Shown piece by piece: positions 2,736 to 47,416 of a stretch of DNA of 64,000 bases; position 1 is the first letter of the stretch, and every line of letters starts with the position of its first letter. Position numbers and translations under genes: made by a program. The stretch lies in IMG/VR virus record IMGVR_UViG_3300024239_000013, positions 33,142-97,141 of that record. One strand, given 5' to 3'. Under the pieces are notes generated by a model. That model saw nothing but the letters and a program-made list of their open reading frames with translations. It did no database searches and was not told where the DNA came from. This stretch comes from a virus.

Positions 2736-3019
2736 CTTCTATTCTATTTTATTATATTATATTTTTTTTATACAAATATAGAAAATCTTTGCGGAATAAA
2801 AAAATTAAATTGGGTTCTAAGAGTTTTTTTTAAACGCCCGGCCACATAGTATATTAGCACCTTACTATGTTTTTTTTTGCTGAATCATTTTTTTCCTTCG
2901 AGAAAATTTCATAAATTTACATTGGGGAATTGTGGTCAAAAAAATACACCGAGAAAATATTCCGCGGTGTAAAATAAAGAATAGGTTGTTTATTATTTAA
3001 GTTTATCTTATATTACGTA

Positions 3020-3850
3020 TTAGGGAGTGTAGTTGTCTAGGAAGTGAATAGCCCTTCTCGCCGAATTCCTATTAAATGTTTCTCTGCTCTTAGTGTGTTT
3101 TCTGTAGTATTCACCTCTTCCGAATTCTCTATCGTAGTCATATCCAGGAGAGAGGTAGGATTCCAATTCATCTATGAGTTCGCTCACTATTTCCTTAGTA
3201 TCTATGGGAGCGAGGTCTGTTTCTAGATCCAGCCAGTCCTGAGATGACTTAGGAACCAAAGGATCATTTAGTAGATCTGTGGCGTAGTTGATTGCAGAGT
3301 CTGCGTCGTTTTGTAGTTCGATCTCGGAGCTCGGGTAGGTTAGCTGTAAAGCATATTCCTCCGGGAGGTCCAGTGTTCTAACCACCCACTTATCAGCTTT
3401 GAGCTTATCCTGAGGTCTCTTAGGTGTAAGGATAGTGAATAGTGGGATCCCAATGAAAAGCTCGAACAACTGCTCGTCATCATCGTAGTCTATTTCTCTG
3501 TATAGATCGGGTTCGCCGTCGTAATAGCTTTCCTTCAGACCTTCACCCTCACCTTTATCCTTACTCATCTCCTTATAAAGAGAAAGAGCCGAGGGTTCGT
3601 CAACCAACCCAGCCTTTACGAGTTTGGTGTAGTATGCAGGATCTTCCCATAGGTGATCCAATGCTATCTCTTCTGCAATCCCTTTGTTGTCGGCGTGTTC
3701 AGATTCTACTGCCACCCCGAGTTCCAGTTGCTTATTTTTTAGACTAAGTAGCGTGGCTTCATCTGAGATGCCATGTCTTTTGGCTACCGCGGGTAGGGTT
3801 GGGGGTTTGGAGGCTCCGCCCTGTAAGAACGATTCGAACTTTTGTATCAT
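3020..3850 (-). CDS. hypothetical acidic protein
   Basis: 276-aa ORF; no recognisable motif. Confidence 0.55.
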   Translation of the reverse strand: MIQKFESFLQGGASKPPTLPAVAKRHGISDEATLLSLKNKQLELGVAVESEHADNKGIAEEIALDHLWEDPAYYTKLVKAGLVDEPSALSLYKEMSKDKGEGEGLKESYYDGEPDLYREIDYDDDEQLFELFIGIPLFTILTPKRPQDKLKADKWVVRTLDLPEEYALQLTYPSSEIELQNDADSAINYATDLLNDPLVPKSSQDWLDLETDLAPIDTKEIVSELIDELESYLSPGYDYDREFGRGEYYRKHTKSRETFNRNSARRAIHFLDNYTP

Positions 3851-3919
3851 GTTATGTTAGGTTATGTTATATTGTATTGTTCCTTGTATATATTTACATG
3901 CGTGTTAAAGAGGATGAGA

Positions 3920-5000
3920 GTTAAGACTAAGACTAAGACTAAGACTAAGGTTTCTCTGGGGAATTTTGGGGAGAATCCCAGAGAGGGCCCGGCCTCCAAA
4001 TAGATAATAGATATAGTAAAGCTAAGTATACTAAGACTAAGACTAAGTATAAAGCTAAAGCTAAAGCTAATTAGACTAAGGCTAAGACTAAGACTAAGTA
4101 TAGACATAGGTATACTAAGAAGACATCCACTATCCAGACTAAGACTAAGACTTGTTCCGTTCCTAGTTCAGCTAAGAGAACTAATCTGAGTGGTGGGCTC
4201 GCGTGCCTCTTGTGGAACCCGGGGCGAGGCGAAGGGTAAAGGGGTACAGAGGGGGTAAACGGGGCGATTATCGGGGCGGGGAAATCGGGGCGAGATTCGG
4301 GGTCGGACTACGGGGGAAGAAACCAAGTTTTTTTCCAGTTTTTTCCAGTTTTTTCCACTTCGTTACACTCTGCCAACTTGGTGGGGAAACCCCGGGGGTA
4401 AACGGGGATTTCTTAGAATCTCCCAGAAACACCCTGGGTGGTGGGCTCGGCCCTAAAGAGGGGCTTCCACAAGGGCCCTTTTTACGAGAAAACCCCCGGT
4501 TGGATATGGATAAGTACCTGGATACTCTCTGGTTGGGTACGACTAAGTGATAGGGATACTCTCTGGTTGGATATGGATAAGTACCTGGATACTCTCTGGT
4601 TACGTAACGATTGGGGAATGTGTCTACGTCTCTCTATGTACTAATGACTGAAGCGTCTTGAATTCCTTACGCGGGTATGCGTCCATGTAGTAACTTACTA
4701 TCATACTATGTTTCTTTAGATAGTGTGGTTATTGTACTTAGTCTTAGTCTTTCTTATCTCTTCTCACTCTACTTGACTACTGAGAATTGGTTTGTTATGC
4801 TACGTAACTTATCTAGTAGTATAATGAGATAGATGTGGATATTATGCTTACTGTGCATCACCCTGGGTAGTCTTAGTCTTAGTCTTAGTCTACCACCTAC
4901 ATTTATGCTTAGCTTTATACTTAGTCTTAGTGACGGAAAATGTATGAGCTATTTGGAGGCCGGGCCCTCTAGGAGAAAGGAGCCCGAAATCCCCCTCGAG
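3920..5000. repeat. GC-rich, G-run-rich non-coding island. It is flanked by perfect 21-bp inverted repeats (AGAGGGCCCGGCCTCCAAATA at 3982-4002; its reverse complement at 4950-4970) and by (TAAGAC)n on the left, (GTCTTA)n on the right. Internal direct repeats: CCAGTTTTTT x3 at 4327-4358, a roughly 32-bp unit duplicated at 4503-4534 and 4570-4601, and ATCGGGGCG-like units at 4260-4310
   Basis: Read directly in the sequence; composition contrasts sharply with the AT-rich surroundings; ORFs inside are low-complexity. Confidence 0.8.
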
Positions 5001-5260
5001 CTCTCATTTCACCCAATTGCCTGATCCATGTTAACCGACATGATATAGAATGGATCTTTTTAAAGTAATATACAGAAAATAAAAGAAACCCATTAAAATT
5101 TTTGAGAATTTCAACTCAAATAAATCTGTTGATATGATCTTGATGGTTTCCCCGAGATCAAAGCGGGGGTGATCGAAAGGACTGGTATGGGATCTTCCTA
5201 GAATTGCAGCACTAAAAAGAATCGGAATGCTTTAATGTCGCATTCAGCATTTAATTAAAA

Positions 5261-5284
5261 GGCAGGTTGATTCCTGCTTTTTTT
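5261..5284 (+). terminator. rho-independent terminator-like hairpin (GCAGG-TTGATT-CCTGC followed by a T-run)
   Basis: Stem-loop plus T-run read in the sequence. Confidence 0.4.
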
Positions 5285-5526
5285 GCGCAGATTCCATAGG
5301 TCTGAGAGTTTTTATTCAAATTCATATATCACAATAAAACAATCAGTATGGTATTTATTATACGCATTCTTAAATGCAGCAAAGTGATTTACAGAAACTC
5401 GCTAAAAAAAGATCTCTATGTCTTTATCCTAACAAAAACCGGACAATGTTTTAGAGATATATAAAACAGAACAAAATAAAAGGTGAATTGTATAAAAAGG
5501 CGGACAATAAAAAAATCCCAAAAAAT

Positions 5527-6354
5527 ATGAGCATTAAGAATTATAAAACATTCATAAGTGAAAGTTCGGATGCAAGTACACTGACAACTGAACAAATAGA
5601 TTTCCTTGACAAGTATGTTATCGGTAAATGGCATATGAATGATGATGGATTTGTTGATGTTGATGGCGTGTTTGATTGTTCTAATAAAGGGATATCTGAT
5701 TTTAAAGGAATAAAGTTTGGTAATGTTGATAGACATTTTAATTGTGCTGATAACAAATTAACCTCATTAGAAGGCGGTCCAAAAGAGGTTGGTGGTAGTT
5801 TTTATTGTAGTCATAACAAAATAACCTCATTAGAATTTGGTCCGAAAGAAGTTGGTGGTCATTTTTATTGTAATCATAACAACATAACCTCATTAGAAGG
5901 TTGTCCAAAAGAGGTCGGCGGTAGTTTTAATTGTTCGTATAACAACTTAATCTCATTAGAATTTGGTCCAAAAGAGGTGAAAGGATATTTTAATTGCTCA
6001 GATAACAACTTAATCTCATTAGAAGGAGCTCCGAAAGAAGTTGACGGTAGTTTTAATTGCTCAGATAACAACTTAATCTCATTAGAAGGAGCTCCAATAG
6101 AAATTGGGCGGGAATTTTATTTGGATCATAACGAAGGTGCATCAGCAGAAACTCTAAAATCGATATACAGTAAAATGAAAGAAGCCAAATCTGATTATAA
6201 AACAGTTTTAAAATCTTTATGGAAAGGAATATCAATAGGAGATAAAATACTTTTATACACACCAGATCTGGATTGGGTTGAAGAAGATGAAGCGGCTAAA
6301 TTATATAACCTAAAGAAGTACAATAGCATAAAGAAAATGCTCTATTTCATATAA
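5527..6354 (+). CDS. targeting-sequence/LRR-like tandem family member 1 (putative capsid-internal, injected protein). Probable start at the internal Met (MSIKNYKTFISESS); the track ORF begins at 5488
   Basis: N-terminal Y-K-T-F-I-S-E-S motif; 22-aa F-x-C-S-x-N-x-L-T/I-S-L-E-G-x-P-K-E-V-G-G repeats; conserved C-terminal domain (KTVLKSLW...LYTPDLDWVEEDE...LKKYNSIKKM). Confidence 0.75.
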   Translation: MSIKNYKTFISESSDASTLTTEQIDFLDKYVIGKWHMNDDGFVDVDGVFDCSNKGISDFKGIKFGNVDRHFNCADNKLTSLEGGPKEVGGSFYCSHNKITSLEFGPKEVGGHFYCNHNNITSLEGCPKEVGGSFNCSYNNLISLEFGPKEVKGYFNCSDNNLISLEGAPKEVDGSFNCSDNNLISLEGAPIEIGREFYLDHNEGASAETLKSIYSKMKEAKSDYKTVLKSLWKGISIGDKILLYTPDLDWVEEDEAAKLYNLKKYNSIKKMLYFI

Positions 6355-6368
6355 TATAAAGAAGCATA

Positions 6369-7064
6369 ATGAAAAGAATCTCAAATTATAAAACATTCAT
6401 AAATGAAAGTACAGGTGCAAGTACATTGACTGCAGAACAGATCGATTTCCTTGATAGATGTGTTAGAGGAACGTGGAAGCTGAATGATGAAGAATTTGTT
6501 GATGTTGATGGGAATTTTGATTGTTTCAATAAAGGAATATCTGACTTTAAAGGAATAAAGTTTGGTAAGGTTAATGGAGATTTTGATTGTTCATATAATA
6601 ATTTAAGTTCTTTGGAAGGATGTCCAAAAGAAGTTGTTGGACATTTTGATTGCTCACATAACAAATTATCTTCATTAGAATTTGCTCCGGAAAGGGTGAG
6701 AAGTAGTTTTTATTGCTCACACAACAACTTAACCTCATTAGAATTTGCTCCGGAAAGGGTGAAAAATAGTTTTTATTGTCAGAATAACAGCTTAACCTCA
6801 TTAGATGGGGTTCCTAAAAAAGTTGGAGGATTTTTTTATTTTGATCATAATGAAGGGATTTCTTCAGAAACCTTAAAAATGATATCCATCCAAATGAAAG
6901 TAATCAAATCTGATTATAAAACAGTTTTAAAATCTTTATGGAGTGAAATACCAGTAGAAGACAAAGTACTTTTATATTCATCAGATCTAGATTGGGTTGA
7001 AGAAGATGAAGGATCTAAATTATCTAATCTAAAGAAGTATAAAAACATAAAGAAAATGATCTAA
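6369..7064 (+). CDS. targeting-sequence/LRR-like tandem family member 2
   Basis: Same N-terminal motif, repeats and C-terminal domain; conserved upstream junction ...TAATATAATATAAAGAAGCATAATG. Confidence 0.8.
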   Translation: MKRISNYKTFINESTGASTLTAEQIDFLDRCVRGTWKLNDEEFVDVDGNFDCFNKGISDFKGIKFGKVNGDFDCSYNNLSSLEGCPKEVVGHFDCSHNKLSSLEFAPERVRSSFYCSHNNLTSLEFAPERVKNSFYCQNNSLTSLDGVPKKVGGFFYFDHNEGISSETLKMISIQMKVIKSDYKTVLKSLWSEIPVEDKVLLYSSDLDWVEEDEGSKLSNLKKYKNIKKMI

Positions 7065-7080
7065 TATAATATAAAGCAAC

Positions 7081-7965
7081 ATGATGAAAAGAATCTCGAA
7101 TTATAAAACATTCATAAACGAAAGCTCGAGTGAAAATAAGCTGACTCAGAAACAACTTGATTTTCTTAACAACCACGTTAAGGGATATTGGAAGTTGAAT
7201 GCTGGAGTTGTTGATGTTGATGGCGATTTTGATTGTTTTAGTAAAGGGATATCAGACTTTAAAGGAATAGTGTTTGGAAAGGTTAGCGGAGATTTTGATT
7301 GCTCACGTAATAATTTAAGTTCTTTAAAAGGTGCTCCTAAAGAGGTTGGTGGACATTTTGATTGTTCACATAACAACTTAAAATCATTAGAAGGAGCTCC
7401 AAAACAGGTTAGTGGAGATTTTGATTGCTCACGTAATAATTTAAGTTCTTTGGAAGGTGCTCCTAAAGAGGTTGGTGGACATTTCCATTGTTCATACAAC
7501 AAATTAACATCATTAGAAGGTTGTCCTAAAGAAGTTGGTGGACATTTTTATTGTTATGTTAACAAATTAACCTCATTAGAATTTGGTCCTAAAGAAGTTG
7601 GTGGAGATTTCGATTGCTCTGACAACAAATTAACCTCATTAGAATTTGGTCCCGAAGAGGTTGGGAGAAGCTTTAATTGCTCAAATAACAAATTAACATC
7701 ATTAGAAGGAGCTCCTAAAGAAGTTGGTGGAGATTTACGATTTTCTCATAATGAGGGAATATCAACCAAAACGATAGGTCTTATATTTGACAAAATGAAA
7801 AAGTCCAAATTGGACTATTCTGATGCTTTAAAATCTTTATGGAAAGAAATACCAGTAGAAGACAAAGTACTTTTATATTCATCAGATCTAGATTGGATTG
7901 AAGAAGATGAAGCGTCTAAATTAGTTAAGTTAAAGAAGTATAATAGCATAAAGAAAATGATCTAA
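7081..7965 (+). CDS. targeting-sequence/LRR-like tandem family member 3
   Basis: Paralog architecture; MMKRISNYKTFINESS start. Confidence 0.8.
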   Translation: MMKRISNYKTFINESSSENKLTQKQLDFLNNHVKGYWKLNAGVVDVDGDFDCFSKGISDFKGIVFGKVSGDFDCSRNNLSSLKGAPKEVGGHFDCSHNNLKSLEGAPKQVSGDFDCSRNNLSSLEGAPKEVGGHFHCSYNKLTSLEGCPKEVGGHFYCYVNKLTSLEFGPKEVGGDFDCSDNKLTSLEFGPEEVGRSFNCSNNKLTSLEGAPKEVGGDLRFSHNEGISTKTIGLIFDKMKKSKLDYSDALKSLWKEIPVEDKVLLYSSDLDWIEEDEASKLVKLKKYNSIKKMI

Positions 7966-7984
7966 TATAATATAAAGAAGCATA

Positions 7985-8869
7985 ATGAAAAGAATCTCAA
8001 ATTATAAAACATTCATAAACGAAAGCTCGAGTGAAAGTACGCTAACACCTGAACAAATTAATTTCCTTAACAATTATGTTAAGGGATATTGGAAGTTGAA
8101 TGCTGATGGAGTTGTTGATGTAGATGGCCATTTTAGTTGTTTCAATAAAGGGTTATCAGACTTTAAAGGAATAGTGTTTGGAAAGGTTAATAGAGATTTT
8201 GATTGTTCAAACAACAACTTAACCTCATTAGAAGGCTGTCCAAAAAAAGTTGGGGGAGATTTTTTTTGTTATGTTAACAAATTAACCTCTTTAAAAGGAT
8301 CGCCAAAAGAGGTTGGTGGTAGTTTTATTTGTTCAGGTAATAACATAATCACATTGGAAGATGCACCTAAAAAAACCAGAAGAAGCTTTGATTGCTCACA
8401 TAATAAATTAACATCATTAGAATTCGGTCCAAAAGAGGTTGGAGGCAATTTTAACTGCTCGCATAATAAATTAACATCATTAGAAGGTGCTCCTGAAGAA
8501 GTTGGTGTGGATTTTTATTGTTATTATAACGAATTGAATAATCTAAAGGGTTCCTCGTATGTAGTTGGAAGAGATTTTAACTGCTCGGATAATAAATTAA
8601 CATCATTAGAAGGAGCTCCAAAAGAAATTGGAGATGATTTCATATTAGAAGATAATGAAGGTGTTTCTTCAGAAATCTTAAAAGAGATATTTAGAAAAAT
8701 GTTAGAATCCAAATTGGACTATAAAACAGTTTTAAAATCTTTATGGAAAGAAATCTCAATAGAAGATAAAATACTTTTATACACACCAGATCTAGACTGG
8801 GTTGAAGAAGATGAAGGGTCCAAATTAGTTAAGCTAAAGAAGTATAGCAACATAAAGAAAATGATCTAG
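7985..8869 (+). CDS. targeting-sequence/LRR-like tandem family member 4
   Basis: Paralog architecture. Confidence 0.8.
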   Translation: MKRISNYKTFINESSSESTLTPEQINFLNNYVKGYWKLNADGVVDVDGHFSCFNKGLSDFKGIVFGKVNRDFDCSNNNLTSLEGCPKKVGGDFFCYVNKLTSLKGSPKEVGGSFICSGNNIITLEDAPKKTRRSFDCSHNKLTSLEFGPKEVGGNFNCSHNKLTSLEGAPEEVGVDFYCYYNELNNLKGSSYVVGRDFNCSDNKLTSLEGAPKEIGDDFILEDNEGVSSEILKEIFRKMLESKLDYKTVLKSLWKEISIEDKILLYTPDLDWVEEDEGSKLVKLKKYSNIKKMI

Positions 8870-8883
8870 TATAAATCAGCATA

Positions 8884-9828
8884 ATGAAAAGAATAATAAA
8901 TTATAAAACATTCGTAAATGAAAGTTCAGGTGCAAGTACACTGACAACTGAACAAATAGATTTCCTTAACAGGTATGTTAGGGGGAAATGGAAGTTGAAT
9001 GCTGGAGTTGTTGATGTTGATGGCGATTTTGATTGTTTTAGTAAAGGGATATCAGACTTTAAAGGAATAGTGTTTGGAAAGGTTAGCGGAGATTTTGATT
9101 GCTCACGTAATAATTTAAGTTCTTTAAAAGGTGCTCCTAAAGAGGTTGGTGGACATTTTGATTGTTCACATAACAACTTAAAATCATTAGAAGATGCACC
9201 TAAAAAAACTGGACGTAGTTTTTATTGTTCGTATAATAAATTAACCTCATTAGAATTTGCTCCGGAAAGGGTGAGAAGTAGTTTTCATTGTCAGAATAAC
9301 AGCTTAACCTCATTAGAAGGAGCTCCTAAAGAAGTTGGAGGGTATTTCGATTGCTCAAGCAACAACTTAACCTCATTAGAAGGAGCTCCAAAAGAGATTG
9401 GGTATGATTTCGATTGCTCACACAACAACTTAACCACATTAGAAGGCTGTCCAAAAGAAATTGTTGAAGATTTCGATTGCTCACACAACAACTTAACCAC
9501 ATTGGAATTCTCTCCAGAGAAAGTTGGTGTTAATTTTTATTGCTTCAATAACAACTTAATTTCATTAAAAGGAGCTCCAAAAGAGATTGGATATGATTTC
9601 ATATTAAAAAATAATGAAGGAGCATCATCAGAAATCTTAAAAGAGATATTTAGAAAAATGTTAGAATCCAAATTGGACTACTCTGATGTTTTAAAATCCC
9701 TTTGGGATGAAATACCAATAAAAGATAAAATAGTTCTATATACCCCTGATCTAGACTGGGTTGAAGAAGATGAAGCGTCTAAATTATCTAAGTTAAAGAA
9801 GTATAGCAACATAAAGAAAATGATCTAG
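8884..9828 (+). CDS. targeting-sequence/LRR-like tandem family member 5
   Basis: Paralog architecture; 9 repeat units. Confidence 0.8.
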   Translation: MKRIINYKTFVNESSGASTLTTEQIDFLNRYVRGKWKLNAGVVDVDGDFDCFSKGISDFKGIVFGKVSGDFDCSRNNLSSLKGAPKEVGGHFDCSHNNLKSLEDAPKKTGRSFYCSYNKLTSLEFAPERVRSSFHCQNNSLTSLEGAPKEVGGYFDCSSNNLTSLEGAPKEIGYDFDCSHNNLTTLEGCPKEIVEDFDCSHNNLTTLEFSPEKVGVNFYCFNNNLISLKGAPKEIGYDFILKNNEGASSEILKEIFRKMLESKLDYSDVLKSLWDEIPIKDKIVLYTPDLDWVEEDEASKLSKLKKYSNIKKMI

Positions 9829-9842
9829 TATAAATCAGCATA

Positions 9843-10727
9843 ATGAAAAGAATAATAAATTATAAAACATTCGTAAATGAAAGTTCAGGTGCAAGTACAC
9901 TGACAACTGAACAAATAGATTTCCTTAACAGGTATGTTAGGGGGAAATGGAAGTTGAATAATGATGGGGTTGTTGATGTAGATGGGGATTTTAATTGTTT
10001 TAATAAAGGGTTATCAGACTTTAAAGAAATAAAATTTGGAAAAGTTACAGGATATTTTGATTGCTCTAAGAACAACTTAACCTCATTAGAGGGTTCACCA
10101 AAAAAAGTTGGTGTAGATTTTTATTGTAGTCATAACAAATTAACCTCATTAGAAGGAGCGCCTATAGAAGTTTATAGAAGTTTCGATTGCAAGGGTAACA
10201 AATTAACCTCGTTAGAATTCGGTCCAAAAAAGGTGGAGGGAAATTTTATTTGTTCAATTAACAAATTAACCTCGTTAGAATTCGGTCCAAAAGGAGTTCC
10301 TGGAACTTTCAATTGTTCATTTAACAAATTAACCTCGTTAGAATTCGGTCCAAAAGAAGTCGGAAGTAGTTTTAATTGCTCATTTAACAACTTAACCTCA
10401 TTAGAATTCTCTCCAGAGAAAGTTGATGTTGATTTTTATTGCTCGAATAATAAATTAACATCATTAGAAGGTGTCCCAAAAGAAATTGGTGGATATTTCT
10501 GGTGTTCTTATAATGTTGGACTATCGACAGATATAATAAATCTTATATTCAGAAAAATGATAAAGTATAGATCTGATTATAAAACAGTTTTAAAATCTTT
10601 ATGGAAAGAAATCTCAATAGAAGACAAGATACTTTTATATTCATCAGATCTAGATTGGATTGAAGAAGATGAAGCGGCTAAATTAGCTAAGTTAAAGAAG
10701 TATAGCAACATAAAGAAAATGATCTAG
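9843..10727 (+). CDS. targeting-sequence/LRR-like tandem family member 6
   Basis: Paralog architecture; 5' region nearly identical to member 5 at the nucleotide level. Confidence 0.8.
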   Translation: MKRIINYKTFVNESSGASTLTTEQIDFLNRYVRGKWKLNNDGVVDVDGDFNCFNKGLSDFKEIKFGKVTGYFDCSKNNLTSLEGSPKKVGVDFYCSHNKLTSLEGAPIEVYRSFDCKGNKLTSLEFGPKKVEGNFICSINKLTSLEFGPKGVPGTFNCSFNKLTSLEFGPKEVGSSFNCSFNNLTSLEFSPEKVDVDFYCSNNKLTSLEGVPKEIGGYFWCSYNVGLSTDIINLIFRKMIKYRSDYKTVLKSLWKEISIEDKILLYSSDLDWIEEDEAAKLAKLKKYSNIKKMI

Positions 10728-10741
10728 TATAAATCAGCATA

Positions 10742-11689
10742 ATGAAAAGAATAATAAATTATAAAACATTCATAAACGAAAGCTCGAGTGAAAATAACTT
10801 GACACCTGAACAGATATATTTCCTGAACAAGCAGATTAAGGGGAAATGGAAGTTGAATGCTGATGGGGTTGTTGATGTTGTTGGAAATATCCATTGTTCA
10901 CATAGAGAAATATCGGACTTCAAGGGAATAAAATTCGGAAAAGTTACTGGGTATTTTGATTGCTCAAATAACAACTTAACATCATTAGAGGGTTGTCCAA
11001 AAGAGGTTGGTGGACATTTTTATTGTTCATATAACAGCTTAACATCATTAGAGGGTTGTCCAAAAGAGGTTGGGGGACATTTTTATTGTCAACGTAACAA
11101 CTTAACCTCATTAGAAGGTGGTCCAGAAAGAGTGAATGGAGATTTCATTTGTTATGGTAACAAATTAGCTTCATTAGAATTTGGACCCAAGGAGGTTAGA
11201 GGTACTTTCGATTGCTCAAATAACAAATTAACATCCTTAGAAGGATGCTCTAAAGAGGTGAATGGAGATTTCGATTGCACATATAACAAATTAACATCAT
11301 TAGAATTCTCTCCAGTTAAAGTTGGTGGTACTTTCGATTGTTCAGATAATAACTTAACCTCATTAGAATTTGGACCTGAAGATGTTGGGGGAGGCTTTAA
11401 TTGTTCCCGTAATAAATTAACCTCATTAGAAGGAGCTCCTAAAGAAGTTGGAGGTACTTTACGATGTTTTTATAATGAGGGTTTATCAAACGAAACAATA
11501 GGTCTTATATTTGAAAAAATGATAAAATCCAGATTGGATTATAAAACAGTTTTAAAATCTTTATGGGGAGAAATACCAATAAAAGATAAAATAGTTCTAT
11601 ATACCCCTGATCTGGATTGGGTTGAAGGAGATGAAGCGGCTAAATTATCTAATCTAAAGAAGTATAGCAACATAAAGAAAATGATCTAA
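10742..11689 (+). CDS. targeting-sequence/LRR-like tandem family member 7
   Basis: Paralog architecture. Confidence 0.8.
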   Translation: MKRIINYKTFINESSSENNLTPEQIYFLNKQIKGKWKLNADGVVDVVGNIHCSHREISDFKGIKFGKVTGYFDCSNNNLTSLEGCPKEVGGHFYCSYNSLTSLEGCPKEVGGHFYCQRNNLTSLEGGPERVNGDFICYGNKLASLEFGPKEVRGTFDCSNNKLTSLEGCSKEVNGDFDCTYNKLTSLEFSPVKVGGTFDCSDNNLTSLEFGPEDVGGGFNCSRNKLTSLEGAPKEVGGTLRCFYNEGLSNETIGLIFEKMIKSRLDYKTVLKSLWGEIPIKDKIVLYTPDLDWVEGDEAAKLSNLKKYSNIKKMI

Positions 11690-11705
11690 TATAATATAAA
11701 AAAAC

Positions 11706-12653
11706 ATGATGAAAAGAATAGTAAATTATAAAACATTCATAAACGAAAGCTCTGGTGAAAATAACCTGACCCCAGAACAAATTGATTTCCTTAACAACTA
11801 TGTTAAGGGGAAATGGAAGTTTAATGTTGGAGTTGTTGATATTGATGGCGATTTTAGTTGTTTCGATAGAGGAATATCTGACTTTAAAGGAATAGTGTTT
11901 GGAAGGGTTACCGGTCATTTTGACTGTTCGGATAACAACTTAACATCATTAGAAGGTTGTCCAAAAGAGGTTGGTGGAAATTTTTATTGTCATTATAACA
12001 ACTTAACCTCATTAGAAGGTTGTCCAAAAGAGGTTGGCGGACATTTTTATTGTCATTATAACAACTTAACATCATTAGAAGGTTGTCCAAAAAAAGTGAA
12101 TGGAGATTTCGATTGCACAGATAACAACTTAACCTCATTAGAATTCGGTCCAAAAGAGATTAATGGACATTTTTATTGTTATGATAACAGCTTAACCTCA
12201 TTAGAATTTGGTCCCGAAAGAGTGAATGGAGATTTTGATTGTTCGAATAACAACTTAACCTCATTAGAATTTGGACCCAAAGAGGTTGGTGGTACTTTCG
12301 ATTGCTCACGTAATAACTTAAGCTCGTTAGAAGGTGTTCCTGAAAAGCTGAACGGAGTTTTTTATTTCTCATGTAACAAATTAACCTCATTAGAAGGTGC
12401 TCCTAAAAAACTAGGATCACAATTTTTTTGTGAGAATAATGAAGGGATATCAACCAAAACGATAAATCTTATATTTGACAAAATGGAAACCTCCAAATCT
12501 GATTATAAAACAGTTTTAAAATCTTTATGGAAAGAAATACCAATAGAAGATAAAATACTTTTATACACCCCAGATCTTGATTGGGTTGAAGAAGATGAAG
12601 GGTCTAAATTAGCTAAGTTAAAGAAGTATAGCAACATAAAGAAAATGATCTAA
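11706..12653 (+). CDS. targeting-sequence/LRR-like tandem family member 8
   Basis: Paralog architecture. Confidence 0.8.
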   Translation: MMKRIVNYKTFINESSGENNLTPEQIDFLNNYVKGKWKFNVGVVDIDGDFSCFDRGISDFKGIVFGRVTGHFDCSDNNLTSLEGCPKEVGGNFYCHYNNLTSLEGCPKEVGGHFYCHYNNLTSLEGCPKKVNGDFDCTDNNLTSLEFGPKEINGHFYCYDNSLTSLEFGPERVNGDFDCSNNNLTSLEFGPKEVGGTFDCSRNNLSSLEGVPEKLNGVFYFSCNKLTSLEGAPKKLGSQFFCENNEGISTKTINLIFDKMETSKSDYKTVLKSLWKEIPIEDKILLYTPDLDWVEEDEGSKLAKLKKYSNIKKMI

Positions 12654-12671
12654 TATAATATAAAGAGCACA

Positions 12672-13367
12672 ATGAAAAGAATAGTAAATTATAAAACTTT
12701 CATAAATGAAAGTGCAGGTGCAAGTACACTGACTTCAGAACAGATAGATTTCCTTAACAACTATGTTAAGGGGAAATGGAAGCTGAATGGTGAAGGATTT
12801 ATTGATATAGATGGTGATTTTAGTTGTTTCGATAAAGGGTTATCAGACTTTAGATGGATAAAATTTGGAAAAGTTACAGGGTATTTTTATTGTTCATATA
12901 ATGGATTGACATCATTAGAGGGAGCACCAAAAAAAGTTGGTTTGAGTTTTTATTGTCATAATAACAAATTAACATCATTGGATGGCTCTCCTAAAGAGAT
13001 TGGTGGAAATTTCGATTGCTCTGACAACAAATTAACCTCATTAGAATTCTCACCCGAAAGTGTAAAGGGGAGCTTTGATTGCTCATATAACAACTTAACA
13101 TCATTAGAATTTGGTCCTAAAGAAGTTGGCGGAGATTTACGATTTTCTCATAATGAGGGATTGTCAACCAAAACGATAGGTCTTATATTTGACAAAATGG
13201 AAAAGTCCAAATTGGACTATAAAACAGTTTTAAAATCTTTATGGAAAGAAATACCAATAGAAGATAAAATACTTTTATACAATGCGGATCTAGATTGGAT
13301 TGAAGGAGATGAAGCGGCTAAATTAGCTAAGTTGAATAAATATAGCAACATAAAGAAAATGATCTAA
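12672..13367 (+). CDS. targeting-sequence/LRR-like tandem family member 9 (short, fewer repeats)
   Basis: Paralog architecture. Confidence 0.8.
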   Translation: MKRIVNYKTFINESAGASTLTSEQIDFLNNYVKGKWKLNGEGFIDIDGDFSCFDKGLSDFRWIKFGKVTGYFYCSYNGLTSLEGAPKKVGLSFYCHNNKLTSLDGSPKEIGGNFDCSDNKLTSLEFSPESVKGSFDCSYNNLTSLEFGPKEVGGDLRFSHNEGLSTKTIGLIFDKMEKSKLDYKTVLKSLWKEIPIEDKILLYNADLDWIEGDEAAKLAKLNKYSNIKKMI

Positions 13368-13386
13368 TATAATATAAAGAAACATA

Positions 13387-14271
13387 ATGAAAAGAATAGT
13401 AAATTATAAAGCATTCATAAACGAAATCTCGAGTGAAAATAACTTGACACCAGAACAGATAGATTTCCTTAACAGGTATGTTGAGGGGAAATGGAAGTTG
13501 AATGCTGATGGAGCTGTTGATGTAGATGGCGATTTTAGTTGTTTCGATAAAGGGTTATCAGACTTTAAAGGAATAGTGTTTGAGAAGATTAGTGGAGATT
13601 TTGACTGTTCGGCTAACAGCTTAATATCATTAGAAGGTTGTCCAAAAGAGGTTAATGGATATTTTTATTGTCATTATAACAAACTAACCTCATTAGAATT
13701 TGGTCCTGAAAGTGTAGATGGAGATTTCGATTGTTCGAATAACAATTTAACTTCATTAGAATTTGGACCCAAAGAGGTTGGTGGAAATTTTGACTGTTCA
13801 TACAACAAATTAACCTCATTAGAAGTCTGTCCAAAAAAAGTTGGGGGAACTTTCAATTGTTCATTTAATAAATTAACATCATTAGAATTCAGTCCAAAAG
13901 AGGTTGGTGGTAGTTTCAATTGCTCATTTAACAACTTAACATCGTTGCAATTCTCTCCAGAGAAAGTTGATGCTTATTTTCATTGTTCAAATAACAACTT
14001 AACCTCATTAGAAGGGGTATCAAAAGAAGTTGGAGGGAATTTAAGATGTTTTTATAATGAAGGGCTATCAACCGAAACAATAAATCTTATATTTGACAAA
14101 ATGATAAAGTCCAAATTGGACTATTCTGATGCTTTAAAATCTTTATGGAAAGAAATACCAGTAGAAGACAAAGTACTTTTATACACACCCGATCTAGATT
14201 GGGTTGAAGAAGACGAAGCGTCTAAATTAGCTAAGCTAAAGAAGTATAGCAGCATAAAGAAAATGATCTAG
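13387..14271 (+). CDS. targeting-sequence/LRR-like tandem family member 10
   Basis: Paralog architecture. Confidence 0.8.
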   Translation: MKRIVNYKAFINEISSENNLTPEQIDFLNRYVEGKWKLNADGAVDVDGDFSCFDKGLSDFKGIVFEKISGDFDCSANSLISLEGCPKEVNGYFYCHYNKLTSLEFGPESVDGDFDCSNNNLTSLEFGPKEVGGNFDCSYNKLTSLEVCPKKVGGTFNCSFNKLTSLEFSPKEVGGSFNCSFNNLTSLQFSPEKVDAYFHCSNNNLTSLEGVSKEVGGNLRCFYNEGLSTETINLIFDKMIKSKLDYSDALKSLWKEIPVEDKVLLYTPDLDWVEEDEASKLAKLKKYSSIKKMI

Positions 14272-14285
14272 TATAAAGAAGAATA

Positions 14286-15233
14286 ATGAAAAGAATAGTA
14301 AATTATAAAACTTTTATAAACGAAAGTTCAGGTGCAAGTACACTGACAACTGAACAGATAGATTTCCTTAACAGGTATGTTAAGGGGAAATGGAAGTTGA
14401 ATGATAATGGAGTTGTTGATGTTGATGGTGATTTTAGTTGTTCCGATAAAGAAATATCAGACTTTAAAGGAATAATATTTGGAAAAGTTACCGGTCATTT
14501 CTATTGCTCAAGTAACAACTTAAGATCATTAGAAGGTTGTCCCAAAGAGGTTGGAGGGGGTTTCAATTGCTCACGTAATGAATTAACATCATTGGAAGGT
14601 TGTCCAGAAAGGGTGAATGGAGATTTCATTTGTTATGGTAACAACTTAACCTCATTAGAAGGTTGTACAGAAAGAGTGAATGGAGATTTCATTTGTTCGG
14701 CTAACAACTTAACCTCATTAGAAGGCTGCCCTAAGGAAGTTGAGGGATTTTTCAATTGTTCATTTAATAAATTAGCTTCTTTAGAAGGATGTCCTGGAGA
14801 AATTGGAAGTAGTTTTTATTGTTCGTATAACAAATTAACCTCATTAGAATTTGGCCCAGAAATGGTGAATGGAGATTTCGTTTGTTCAGATAACAAATTA
14901 ACCTCGTTAGAATTCAGTCCAAAAGAAGTTGGTGGTAATTTTATTTGTTCAGATAACAACTTAACATCATTAGAGGGAATATCAAAAAAAGTTGGGGGAT
15001 CTTTATGGTGTTCTTCTAATGAAGGACTATCAACCGAAACGATAGATCTTATATTTGATAAAATCATAAAGTTCAAATTGGACTATTTGGATGCTTTAAA
15101 TTTTTTATGGGAGGATATCCCAATAGAAGATAAAGTACTTTTATACACACCCGATTTAGATTGGATTGAAGGAGAGGAAGCGGTTAAATTATCTAATCTA
15201 AAGAAGTATAGTAAAATAAAGAAAATGATATAA
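14286..15233 (+). CDS. targeting-sequence/LRR-like tandem family member 11
   Basis: Paralog architecture. Confidence 0.8.
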   Translation: MKRIVNYKTFINESSGASTLTTEQIDFLNRYVKGKWKLNDNGVVDVDGDFSCSDKEISDFKGIIFGKVTGHFYCSSNNLRSLEGCPKEVGGGFNCSRNELTSLEGCPERVNGDFICYGNNLTSLEGCTERVNGDFICSANNLTSLEGCPKEVEGFFNCSFNKLASLEGCPGEIGSSFYCSYNKLTSLEFGPEMVNGDFVCSDNKLTSLEFSPKEVGGNFICSDNNLTSLEGISKKVGGSLWCSSNEGLSTETIDLIFDKIIKFKLDYLDALNFLWEDIPIEDKVLLYTPDLDWIEGEEAVKLSNLKKYSKIKKMI

Positions 15234-32998: not shown

Positions 32999-33427
32999 TT
33001 ATTTTATTTTTTTCCAAGAAATTTCAAAGTTTTTTATGTGTGGATCGATTGGAACTAAATCTATACTACACAATTTAACGATTTTGATCATATTTTCCAT
33101 AGAAATCTCGCCGAAAATAGTCGGCCTAAATATGGCTTTACCGCTTTCGAGTAAATATTTTGTGATATTAAAGTTTTCCTTATTTGCAAATTCAATATCT
33201 GCAACCCAAAACCCATCTTCCAGATACATATCTCTGGTAAAGTGGTTAACCTTATCGCTTCCTTTAATTTTGATGCCTTCAGTGCTCTTAATATGTACAA
33301 CCAAACCTTCTAAACATCTTTTTGATTTTTTAAAATCTTGAATTATAGAATCGATTTCGGAATCAGTATAATAATATCCATATTGATTTTTTTTACCAAC
33401 TTCTGCTATAGGATATTTTATTTTCAT
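32999..33427 (-). CDS. hypothetical protein
   Basis: 142-aa ORF. Confidence 0.5.
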   Translation of the reverse strand: MKIKYPIAEVGKKNQYGYYYTDSEIDSIIQDFKKSKRCLEGLVVHIKSTEGIKIKGSDKVNHFTRDMYLEDGFWVADIEFANKENFNITKYLLESGKAIFRPTIFGEISMENMIKIVKLCSIDLVPIDPHIKNFEISWKKIK

Positions 33428-45716: not shown

Positions 45717-46454
45717 TTATTTCTCCTTTAGCAAGAATGAATTAGAAATGGATTTGAAAGATATTGTTTTATCCTTGTTTCTAATAACCACTCCTTCTCT
45801 CTCCGCTCCATTGTATAGTTTTGATTTACCCTCTGCGTAAAGAAGAATTTCATCGACAGTTTCTGGTAGGCTATAATTTTCCTCGAGCACAGGAACAAGT
45901 TCAAGTGGTTTATCGTCATTATTAACTTTAGATAGGAATTCCCTCATTTCATCTAATCCTAGATATTCTTGAGTGTCAATATTGAAAATATTGAAAACTC
46001 TAAGAGTATGCCCTTTTATTTTATATGGATTCCCTTGAATTCCTTCACCGATAAGTTCACCCTGGATTGCGTAATTTTGATTAAGAGATCCTAGTTTTTC
46101 TGCTATCTTTAGCTCTCTAGCAACCTTCCAGAATGTATTTTCTTTTTTGGTTCTTTCGACACCATCTTCACCAATGATAGTACCAGGTACAAATTCTCCA
46201 GGATCCGCTAACTCAAGGTTTCTTGAACAGACTCCGAAAACTCCGTCTTTTAAATAGAAGGTTGCGGAACTTCCGTCTAGTTTTTCAGTCACATAAAACC
46301 TTTCAGTCTTCCAGCCCTCGTACTCTTTGGTTAGATTTTGACAGTTATGTACTAAAATATCGTTTGCATAGAAGTTATGAACTTTATCTACTTCAATGTC
46401 ATAACGTTTTGATTCATGATTTATCTTCTTAATAGATTTAATTTTATCTAACAT
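45717..46454 (-). CDS. C-terminal half of a fractured polynucleotide ligase. The C-half of a split intein (residues 1-37, ...KVHNFYANDILVHN; about 46344-46454) is fused to an Rnl2-like nucleotidyltransferase domain starting at Cys+1 (CQNL...VTEKLDGSSATFYLKDG)
   Basis: Split-intein C-half-like terminal HN followed by Cys; KxDG adenylyltransferase motif I, motif IV GEGIQG and motif V REGVVIR in the extein. Confidence 0.7.
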   Translation of the reverse strand: MLDKIKSIKKINHESKRYDIEVDKVHNFYANDILVHNCQNLTKEYEGWKTERFYVTEKLDGSSATFYLKDGVFGVCSRNLELADPGEFVPGTIIGEDGVERTKKENTFWKVARELKIAEKLGSLNQNYAIQGELIGEGIQGNPYKIKGHTLRVFNIFNIDTQEYLGLDEMREFLSKVNNDDKPLELVPVLEENYSLPETVDEILLYAEGKSKLYNGAEREGVVIRNKDKTISFKSISNSFLLKEK

Positions 46455-47416
46455 AGTATTTCTTTTAAAAGGTTATAGATTTCTTCGTTTGTCATATTAT
46501 TAATATCACTCTCCCAAAAATAGTGAACTGTATATCCTTTAGATTCTATAAGCTTACGTTTCCGATTGTCTTTCTTCCAAACATCCTTTGCTAAAAGACC
46601 ATCTAAAAGAACGTCAGACTCTTTATAGAACTTAGGATTAGCATGCCAAAAGTCACCTTGAACTTCTATGATAACTTTATTCTTAAATATCAGATCCCAG
46701 TTATATGCATATAGAAATCCGTTTGCCGTATATTCTACATCTAATTGATTTAGTATTGTCTGAATTCTGATCTCTTGACTACTTACATAATTTATATTAG
46801 CTCTTGCTTTTTCTGTCATCCGCCTGCGTTCATCCGCCGTCATTTTAGATATTCTTTTCTTCTGTGACTCTCCAATCTTCACCGAAACACCTGGGATTTG
46901 AGAAGGATTATAAACGCTATCTCCGTATTTTTTGATAAGAGTATCTCTTATAGATTCTTGGGCCTTTTCATAGTCTATATGTGACTGTGCAACCTTCCGT
47001 ATCTTTGGGTTGCAGAAGTTGTTCTCATATCCAAAGTTCTTTAGGAACGTCTCTTTCTTTTTTTTCTTGATGGCTTTAGCCTGTGATGGATTCTTAACCC
47101 CAAACCGTTTCATATTAGTAGACTCAATCTTATCTTTATAAACCTTGGTCTTTTTGCTTTCGCTATTAGTTCGTTTAATCCCAAGTAATTCGATATAATT
47201 TGCAAATGAAACCCCATACATTTCTTTAAGATCAGAGACATTATAACCTTCAAGATATAGATCCTTTACCGTATCGAAGGTTCTATCTTCTATTTCTATT
47301 TGAGATTTAATGTAGTTTACCTCATTTGTTAATTTATTAATGTTGTGATGTCTATTAATGTGTATTTTTAATATGTTCGTTTGATTGAATTCTTTATTGC
47401 AGATAATACACCTCAT
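46448..47416 (-). mobile_element. free-standing homing-endonuclease-like gene located between the two ligase halves; N-terminal C2H2 zinc finger (CIICNKEF...HINRHH) plus C-terminal Vsr-like/DUF559 PD-(D/E)xK nuclease domain (IIEVQGDFWHANP...KDNRKRKLIESKGYTVHYFWESD)
   Basis: Motifs read in the translation; genomic position matches the fractured-gene arrangement. Confidence 0.6.

Follow-up and report, generated by a model that had tools for sequence, protein, structure and literature searches.

Hardly anything is known of the cis-acting sites of jumbo phages, origins included, and in uncultured lineages genetics is out of reach. What, then, is the role of a GC-rich intergenic island set between divergent genes of such a phage? 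The DNA studied here (hereafter, the window) is a stretch of 64,000 nt, positions 33,142 to 97,141 of IMG/VR virus record IMGVR_UViG_3300024239_000013, from an uncultured jumbo phage; the protein encoded next to the island is carried on contigs of up to 319 kb. A first-pass annotation, made from the letters alone, had drawn attention to positions 3920-5000, a G-tract-rich segment framed by inverted repeats (IRs), and had listed a replication origin or packaging signal with iterons, a structured non-coding RNA, a non-autonomous element with terminal IRs and a cruciform recombination hotspot as candidate roles. All the features that it named are present, far beyond chance. Our analysis reveals a composite non-coding module that occurs once in the window, keeps its place in all related loci, has a core more conserved than the neighbouring genes and lacks a conserved RNA fold. 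We tentatively read this module as a DNA-level site on which proteins would assemble, with replication origin as the preferred role.

Anatomy of the module

The related loci fall into approximately eight sequence groups, labelled clades A-H, all of them from uncultured jumbo phages with contigs of up to 290-434 kb. The gene strand is defined as the minus strand of the window, that is, the strand of the acidic-protein gene that follows the module (hereafter, the partner gene). Read 5' to 3' on the gene strand, the module opens with an outer G5T4G3 motif, followed by IR1, IR2, a simple-repeat arm, a quasi-palindromic motif and the core; after the core come a mirrored pyrimidine-rich arm, IR2, IR1, the outer motif, a GATATATAr box and the ATG of the partner gene. 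The elements are the following:

4983-4995, minus strand: outer-left motif, gene strand GGGGGATTTCGGG, inverted partner of 3958-3971; GGGGGnTTTTGGG is kept here in all clades
4940-4970, minus strand: IR1-left, gene strand AGAGGGCCCGGCCTCCAAATAG, with the perfect 21-nt arm at 4950-4970
4930-4940, minus strand: IR2-left, weak in clade A (TTTTCCGTCAC) and GTTCCGTCTCyTATAGA in other clades
4713-4929, minus strand: left simple-repeat arm, purine-rich on the gene strand, with (AGACTA)n at 4868-4891 and 4737-4751
4680-4712, minus strand: motif 1, quasi-palindromic, ACATAGTATGATAGTAAGTTACTACATGG, a candidate lineage-specific promoter or operator
4498-4606, minus strand: variable-number tandem repeat, a 33-nt unit in 3.1 copies with a 67-nt double unit, clade A only
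4214-4496, minus strand: fixed-length core, conserved across clades
4428-4486, minus strand: most conserved 58-nt block, CGnAAA..GGCCCT-N8-GCCCCTCT..AGGGCCGAGC..CCACCCAGGGTG, ending in CACCCAGGGTG
4329-4367, minus strand: three TGGAAAAAAC repeats exactly 10 nt apart, phased A-tracts; three copies of CCAGTTTTTT on the plus strand
4214-4320, minus strand: one-way GCCyCG array at 12-13-nt spacing, seen on the plus strand as G runs (CGGGGCG)
4154-4163, minus strand: IR2-right, GGAACGGAAC; TATAGGAGACGGAAy in other clades
4013-4153, minus strand: right simple-repeat arm, pyrimidine-rich on the gene strand, (CTTAGT)n
3982-4012, minus strand: IR1-right, gene strand CTATTTGGAGGCCGGGCCCTCT, with the perfect 21-nt arm at 3982-4002
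3958-3971, minus strand: outer-right motif, gene strand CCCCAAAATTCCCC
3922-3949, minus strand: additional (TAAGAC)4.7 block beyond the IR, shared by the window and L007 and absent from L005 and L006

The core measures 267-268 nt in clades C and F and 244-245 nt in the others. Within its most conserved block lies an odd-centred 11-bp palindrome, CACCCAGGGTG at 4430-4440, that is invariant in all clades; GGGCCC/CCCGGG palindromes and a TTCTnrGA / CCCCGwTTAsCCC segment are also present, and a 14-bp palindrome, TTAGCCCGGGyTAA, occurs two or three times in clades C and F. The GCCyCG repeats, which correspond to the iteron-like repeats of the first-pass annotation, stand at conserved coordinates with spacings of 12, 24 and 35 nt (multiples of ~12), clade A filling every slot at 12-13 nt, and they point in one direction only (62 sense and 0 antisense occurrences in 11 sequences). 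The triple repeat noted earlier is likewise real, CCAGTTTTTT forming a tandem of period 10 with 2.9 copies at 4329-4357. TGGWAAA is found at the same core coordinates at 10-nt intervals, in three copies in clades A and B and in one to three recognisable copies elsewhere. None of the core motifs occurs anywhere else in the 64 kb.

Beside the core, 42-nt copies at 4498 and 4565 are 95% identical and lie 67 nt apart. The first-pass annotation had the distance right, and the unit that it gave as a duplicated stretch of about 32 bp is in fact the 33-nt unit repeated 3.1 times. Copy number varies among relatives, reaching 5.1 units in L005. In L064, a distant relative of 430 kb, a tandem duplication affects the ~75 nt that immediately precede the conserved block (positions 1000-1150); its location matches that of the 67-nt repeat of clade A, but its sequence is unrelated.

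The two ends of the module mirror each other. The 21-nt AGAGGGCCCGGCCTCCAAATA at 3982-4002 has its exact reverse complement at 4950-4970, as previously described, and beyond this pair the 64 kb contain no match, even with up to 3 mismatches allowed (expected number of matches, 0). The repeat extends to 31 nt at 90%, with looser inverted symmetry reaching ~150-230 nt inward from each end, and a second inverted pair lies outside it (GGGGAATTTTGGGG at 3958-3971 and CCCGAAATCCCCC at 4983-4995). Across clades, IR1-left reads CCAGrGGGCCCGsCCwCCAAATAG, and the IR1 arms covary between clades (GGCCTCC/GGAGGCC versus GCCCACC/GGTGGGC); such joint changes would be expected of two sites for one factor and equally of a paired helix. 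The cruciform hotspot suggested for this architecture is unlikely, given that the perfect arms are 927 nt apart.

Microsatellites occupy both sides: TAAGAC x4.7 at 3922-3949, ACTAAG x11 at 4030-4098 and AGACTA x2.8 at 4136-4152 on one, with their complements TAGTCT x4 (4868-4891) and CTTAGT (4737-4751) on the other. The mirrored microsatellite arms reported earlier are thereby recovered as complementary blocks, except that the TAAGAC block lies outside the IR. The repeat unit is clade-specific (TAAGAC in clade A; TAGAGAGAG and CATAGACA in clades B, D and F), both inward-reading strands are purine-rich, and the arms are only ~75-80% alike outside IR1. In clades C and G, the left arm holds an open reading frame (ORF) of the DUF2452 family (117-128 aa) between IR2-left and the quasi-palindromic motif, where the other clades have simple repeats.

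The quasi-palindromic motif comprises 25 nt, CATAsTATG-N4-TAAnATAsTATG, and has two copies in the 64 kb, at 4688-4710 and 2840-2870. It recurs in intergenic regions of the lineage, usually 30-110 nt upstream of start codons, as in L002 (4183-4207 and 5696-5720) and also in L059, L062, L064, L065 and L069.

Conservation, coding capacity and RNA fold

Homologous loci were identified by a scan for the 21-mer, core-pattern scans of viral contigs and metagenomes, an IR2/IR1 scan, a search of contigs encoding homologues of the neighbour protein, and a profile built from the cores. The module is kept in 26/26 related loci, at one place and with constant gene order and orientation, and is not absent from syntenic relatives. 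In 20/20 pattern-derived loci that include downstream sequence, the homologous gene follows after 424-642 nt, on the same strand, and the core is present in 5/5 protein-derived loci holding any upstream region, L075 being cut inside the core. The core profile recovers all members at E<1e-60, and none of the relatives retrieved through the partner protein showed an empty site. The conserved place and flanking genes in all clades therefore identify the module as ancestral and vertically inherited, and not as a recent insertion.

The core is more conserved than the neighbouring genes and is under purifying selection. Its identity compares with that at four-fold synonymous sites of the adjacent gene as 0.88 vs 0.60 (L002/L029), 0.95 vs 0.70 (L022/L026) and 0.71 vs 0.25 (window/L023), and the 58-nt block is 0.72-1.00 identical across clades. 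The module is a compact, readily recognisable non-coding landmark under stronger constraint than its neighbour genes, with a precise motif grammar, and provides a metagenome marker for finding and orienting genomes of this lineage.

Neither the island region nor 24 kb of the window returned a DNA similarity match among 50,697 phage records, and the searched literature makes no mention of DUF5661, a domain of the partner protein, or of the module sequences in a phage context. In a scan of a genome collection, one Streptomyces match inside high-GC coding DNA was dismissed as chance. The pattern GGAGACGGAA..TATTTGG yielded mostly unrelated matches in IMG/VR, but also a new clade in L043.

These results bear directly on two readings in which the module is mobile. 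One takes it for a non-autonomous transposon with terminal IRs, akin to a miniature inverted-repeat transposable element, or for the domesticated remnant of one. Transposon ends with multiple transposase-binding sites do resemble terminal IRs accompanied by inverted subterminal short repeats, which the module has. Its motifs, however, are single-copy in the 64 kb, the same genes flank it on both sides in all clades, its interior is under strong purifying selection, the flanks contain no target-site duplication, and the relatives fetched through the protein include no empty site. The non-autonomous element of the first-pass annotation is therefore largely refuted, and we give it next to no weight.

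The other reading is an invertible promoter switch, in which a recombinase would flip the IR1-IR1 segment and so turn a promoter-like motif toward either the leucine-rich-repeat (LRR) gene array on one side or the acidic-protein gene on the other. As in fimS and the Bacteroides invertons, where 20-30-bp IRs flank a segment of several hundred bp with a promoter-like motif, IRs of 21-31 bp here surround ~930 bp containing such a motif between divergent genes, and several metagenome contigs end inside the module. Unlike invertons, the module has a single orientation in 26/26 loci from independent samples and clades, no adjacent recombinase, and a more complex and conserved interior; the contig breaks are explained by the tandem repeat, the microsatellites and the IRs. 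A switch of this kind is very improbable.

Five independent contigs end inside or at the edge of the module: L006 and L007, both of which break at the tandem repeat, and L073, L075 and L076. Repeats and IRs that break assembly would explain these ends, and with them the frequent assembly breaks of these phages at the module; real population heterogeneity is the alternative.

The judgement that the island contains no credible ORF stands. Frames of 52-115 aa can be read in the window, but clades C and F have none. A coding core was rejected on these grounds and because the invariant block falls in different phases in different clades; the long antisense frames are an artefact of G-richness.

A large structured RNA comparable to GOLLD, ROOL, OLE and HEARO would likewise stand out as a conserved, GC-rich non-coding island against an AT-rich genomic background. 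For such an RNA speak the GC content of the core (0.53-0.59 whatever the genome GC), its strong sequence conservation and the folding of the whole 1.1 kb into a giant hairpin of -335 kcal/mol, which is due to the arms only. A search against Rfam (4227 families), however, gave 0 window matches at the gathering score and 0 at E<=5 in 3800-5300. On 8 sequences RNAalifold assigned the core only -20.9 kcal/mol (covariation term -0.7), and on 12 sequences from 7 clades -16.2 kcal/mol (term +0.06), low values for ~300 nt, and fold z-scores against column shuffles were only -2.5 to -3.4 on either strand, both strands being equally weak. The sole recurrent hairpin, GGCCCU/AGGGCC, shows no compensatory change, only wobbles or breaks, and both its halves are replaced in L064. 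A hairpin of the TTCTnrGA region forms in clades A, D and E and does not form in clades B, C and F. The module thus differs from the known large RNAs in lacking an Rfam match and covarying helices and in having a C-rich, G-poor gene strand. The structured RNA put forward in the first-pass annotation is largely refuted for the core, and its probability is negligible.

Pairing between the arms was addressed separately. In confidently aligned arm blocks most mismatches are transversions (52), the two wobble types of transition number 10 and 13, and there is no wobble bias; the mismatches are as sequence identity would give and not as RNA pairing would. Raw wobble counts among six clade representatives (20 vs 51) had favoured pairing on the antisense strand, but this bias disappears in the confident blocks; it is treated as a composition or alignment artefact, and the reading was rejected. 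A snoRNA match in L002, outside the module, was attributed to chance (19 bits against a threshold of 60).

The plus strand of the core is rich in G, with 13 runs of at least four G in 307 nt, in line with the dozen runs previously counted. This strand might form G-quadruplex (G4) DNA or RNA, or a stable RNA-DNA hybrid (R-loop) when transcribed against the gene direction. One canonical G4 motif (G3+N1-7 x4) is present in the window, antisense GC skew is +0.12 to +0.24 in most clades, and the purine-rich inward-reading strands point the same way; among known origins, T4 oriF and oriG work via R-loops (PMC3016281). The G4 potential claimed for the window is nonetheless not a conserved property: no canonical motif exists in the close relative L005 or in L007, L002, L029, L014, L015 and others, and where one exists elsewhere its position shifts. 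The skew is ~0 in clade D, no inward-facing promoter was identified, and the G runs arise as a by-product of the GCCyCG repeats. We regard a G4 or R-loop element as quite improbable. Within the 64-kb window, the G4 signal and the heuristic that a GC island is a structured RNA both mislead. A resemblance to Chi sites in the conserved block was set aside as it is not conserved across clades.

A candidate replication origin and its rivals

We propose, tentatively, that the module acts as double-stranded DNA and serves as a platform for several sequence-specific proteins at fixed spacing. Two mirror-image end modules (outer G5T4G3, IR1 and IR2) would offer putative sites toward two divergent gene sets, and the fixed-length core would contribute putative palindromic sites, three putative sites that recur every 10 bp along a single face of the helix and may bend the DNA, and a putative one-way GCCyCG array with elements ~12 bp apart. 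Most likely the platform would serve as an origin of phage replication, perhaps one linked to regulation of the genes on either side. A duplex-DNA meaning is natural for the odd-centred palindromes, the 10-bp TGGWAAA phasing and the fixed core spacing; that the reader is a protein on DNA and the outcome replication initiation is what we infer from the sequence. An origin is preferred because one-way regular repeats stand beside phased A-rich repeats, with mirror ends and in a single copy, and because the module is located at a switch of transcription and skew for which T4 oriE, oriF and oriG provide the precedent. It coincides with a change of gene orientation and with a local minimum of cumulative GC skew (minimum at ~3 kb).

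Iteron origins such as lambda ori, P1 oriR and R6K gamma combine one-way repeats, bent or phased A-rich DNA, IRs near a promoter and a linked gene. The module resembles them in its one-way direct repeats, adjoining phased A-rich DNA, IRs near a gene promoter and linked gene (PMC3016281). Unlike theirs, which measure 17-22 bp at ~22 bp, its repeats have a core of 6-7 nt at ~12-nt spacing; the module is also GC-rich, and the linked protein is acidic and not a recognisable initiator. In T4, oriE has evenly spaced 12-nt repeats where transcription diverges, and oriE, oriF and oriG all lie at such switches (PMC3016281). With oriE the module shares evenly spaced short direct repeats of ~12-nt period, an intergenic position, the strand and skew switch, and conservation in syntenic relatives (PMC3016281). 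It differs from oriE in having no sequence similarity and a far larger size, in its mirror ends, simple-repeat arms, palindrome block and phased TGGWAAA, and in having no repEA/repEB-like genes.

Herpesvirus lytic origins (oriLyt, oriL/oriS) are likewise non-coding regions of about a kilobase between divergent genes, with IRs, GC-rich repeats and strand-asymmetric tracts. The likeness is one of architecture only, as these viruses belong to an unrelated realm and there is no homology. No conserved DnaA boxes were found in the module, where resemblance is partial and clade-limited: GAGCTACCACC, near the equivalents of 4440-4452 in clades B, D and E (L002, L015 and L023), resembles the Thermotoga 12-mer DnaA box, AAACCTACCACC (PMC10316083). 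Clades A, C, F and G do not conserve it, which makes coincidence the probable explanation. Overall, the module has no Rfam match, is undescribed in the searched literature and is closest in architecture to repeat-bearing origins. The origin or packaging signal with iterons of the first-pass annotation is accordingly compatible with the findings and is our leading guess, with regular one-way direct repeats (GCCyCG) as in iteron origins.

Several observations weigh against an origin. The initiator expected to be linked to an iteron origin was not found, the sole linked gene encoding the acidic protein, which is unlikely to bind the repeats because of its acidity (pI 4.1-4.7) and unknown fold. 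No replication or initiator gene is recognisable elsewhere in the window, whose genes include RNA-repair and metabolic ones. The skew minimum is not independent evidence, because it coincides with the gene-orientation change, and the role of the oriE repeats themselves is unproven (PMC3016281). Finally, a function at the RNA level would fit equally well with the one-way GCCyCG repeats, with the constant orientation of the module directly ahead of the gene, and with the recurrence of the promoter- or operator-like motif 30-110 nt upstream of starts in the lineage.

The main rival builds on this last point. An unstructured, C-rich leader or non-coding RNA of the acidic-protein gene would start from the quasi-palindromic motif and act as a Rho-utilisation (rut) or attenuation site, or as a platform for an RNA-binding regulator, that times expression. 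The module is always directly upstream of the gene in the same orientation, the 25-nt motif precedes start codons elsewhere in the lineage in promoter- or operator-like fashion, every GCCyCG repeat points one way, and no terminator intervenes between core and gene. The repeat half of the core is also C-rich and G-poor with ~12-nt spacing, C/G being 2-4.4 in its best 78-nt window for most clades. When the core was compared with the C-rich, G-poor, unstructured transcript segment of ~80 nt that Rho uses, C/G in the best 78-nt window was 2.2-5.4 in most clades and 1.6-2.1 in clade D, against 0.9-1.5 over the whole core. C-rich, G-poor composition with such spacing resembles Rho-binding sites. Those sites are not conserved in sequence, however, whereas the 58-nt block is 72-100% identical across clades, and clade D shows no C-richness (C/G 0.89-0.98). 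The odd-centred palindrome and the 10-bp phasing have no obvious RNA meaning, and the gene has its own TATATA box near the ATG. With the left IR set upstream of where the transcript would begin, the inverted symmetry is left unexplained, and the core of L064 has no motif 1 upstream. On balance a leader RNA is a possible but doubtful explanation.

The motif that would start such a leader invites comparison with the PeSL of T4-type phages, a short conserved promoter/stem-loop motif that is intergenic and flanks variable genes (PMC4122927). Similarly, CATAsTATG..ATAsTATG brackets a GC-rich cassette and recurs in related genomes, a likeness limited to the 25-nt motif. Unlike PeSL, it has a different sequence and just two copies in 64 kb, and its promoter or terminator role is putative.

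Purely transcriptional two-way control would give the module no part in replication. The ends would then be twin regulatory modules of divergent genes, which may encode packaged head proteins, and the core would be enhancer- or operator-like. The same set of motifs does face the LRR gene in mirror orientation, the IR1 arms covary as two sites for one factor would, and in clades C, D, E and F the C-run of the outer-right motif ends 13-14 nt before GATATATA, a geometry of the -35 type. This spacing rule fails on the left side, though, and the motifs are used at only one locus in 64 kb. Conservation of this degree over a fixed-length core of ~250 nt is also unusual for operators, which normally co-evolve fast with their regulators. 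We consider two-way control unlikely, and the readings beyond it, the leader RNA and the origin jointly hold only a small share of the probability.

A bolder interpretation is that the module represents a new kind of phage cis-element, either a composite site of ~1 kb, read as sequence, that initiates replication or loads factors between divergent gene sets for injected or head-packaged proteins and so couples replication to expression, or a core that is a new class of long unstructured regulatory RNA. We view this as speculative. If true, the lineage of uncultured 290-430 kb phages would have in this module the first cis-acting landmark to be defined in it; the module offers in any case a candidate origin or control region open to testing.

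Partner gene and genomic setting

Features downstream of the module, together with the ORF found in the left arm of some relatives, are as follows:

3887-3894, minus strand: ATATATA box upstream of the partner gene, promoter-like; in other clades GATATATAr, 3-25 nt before the ATG
3020-3850, minus strand: obligate partner gene, 276 aa, acidic, isoelectric point (pI) 4.5, with an N-terminal DUF5661 and a C-terminal domain containing an invariant NYATDL motif
2937-2970, minus strand: hairpin and T run after the partner gene, intrinsic-terminator-like as read from the sequence
2840-2870, minus strand: motif 2, second quasi-palindromic copy, which with motif 1 brackets the GC-rich part (core and gene)
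L014 ~390-740, L043 2015-2400 (minus strand) and L072 467-853: DUF2452-family ORF, clades C and G

The partner-protein family is confined to this phage lineage and is acidic throughout. DUF5661 was considered as the link to the module and rejected, proteins with DUF5661 and without the C-terminal domain (L010-L013) having no module. Clades D and G lack DUF5661 yet retain the module, so the constant partner is the C-terminal domain with NYATDL. This domain gave no Pfam, PHROG or fold match. A metagenomic protein of 5409 aa, P0120, contains eight stretches like residues 91-145 of the domain and is the sole relative found outside the small family.

The GC-rich island described in the first pass is indeed GC-rich, and larger than the 3920-5000 given for it, spanning ~3020 to ~4700 and taking in the partner gene. 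The proportion of about one half holds for 4101-4600 only (GC 0.50-0.57) and not for the arms (0.35-0.38), against a window background of ~0.31. The partner gene has a GC content of ~0.45-0.48, so that gene and core (4100-4700) both stand far above the 0.31-GC genome, as they also do in clade B (L002). Their high GC points either to a composition constraint or to transfer of a cassette from a GC-richer relative.

On both sides the flanks are kept: upstream lies an LRR-family gene on the opposite strand, downstream a 210-aa ORF and a gene for a small membrane protein. The divergent neighbour is of the LRR family in clades A, C, D, F and G, and the adjacency to a paralog locus remarked on earlier is thus a recurrent feature. 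In the window, this locus consists of eleven tandem paralogous LRR genes of 231-315 aa (5488-15233), all with MKRISNYKTFINES-like starts; the acidic neighbour gene and other genes in relatives have MKHIKLFEEF-like starts. The capsid-targeting peptide of T4 is MKTYQEFIAE. By analogy, the starts of the LRR array suggest an array of head-packaged, injected proteins. Between the module and the array, a decayed small-ORF remnant, MKHIKIFENF..., is found at 5085-5175 on the plus strand and at 2560-2660 of L005, where its start codon is intact; in the window it is followed by a hairpin and T run at 5262-5290.

Elsewhere, a scan for tRNA and tmRNA genes found none in the window, and no packaging gene is recognisable in its 64 kb. 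The stretch 25000-60000 encodes a set of RNA-repair and tRNA-related enzymes, namely two families of RNA ligase, a Thg1-like guanylyltransferase and a CCA-adding enzyme. It also encodes ClpP and GMP reductase and holds two genes that contain inteins and, at 46448-47416, an ORF resembling homing endonucleases.

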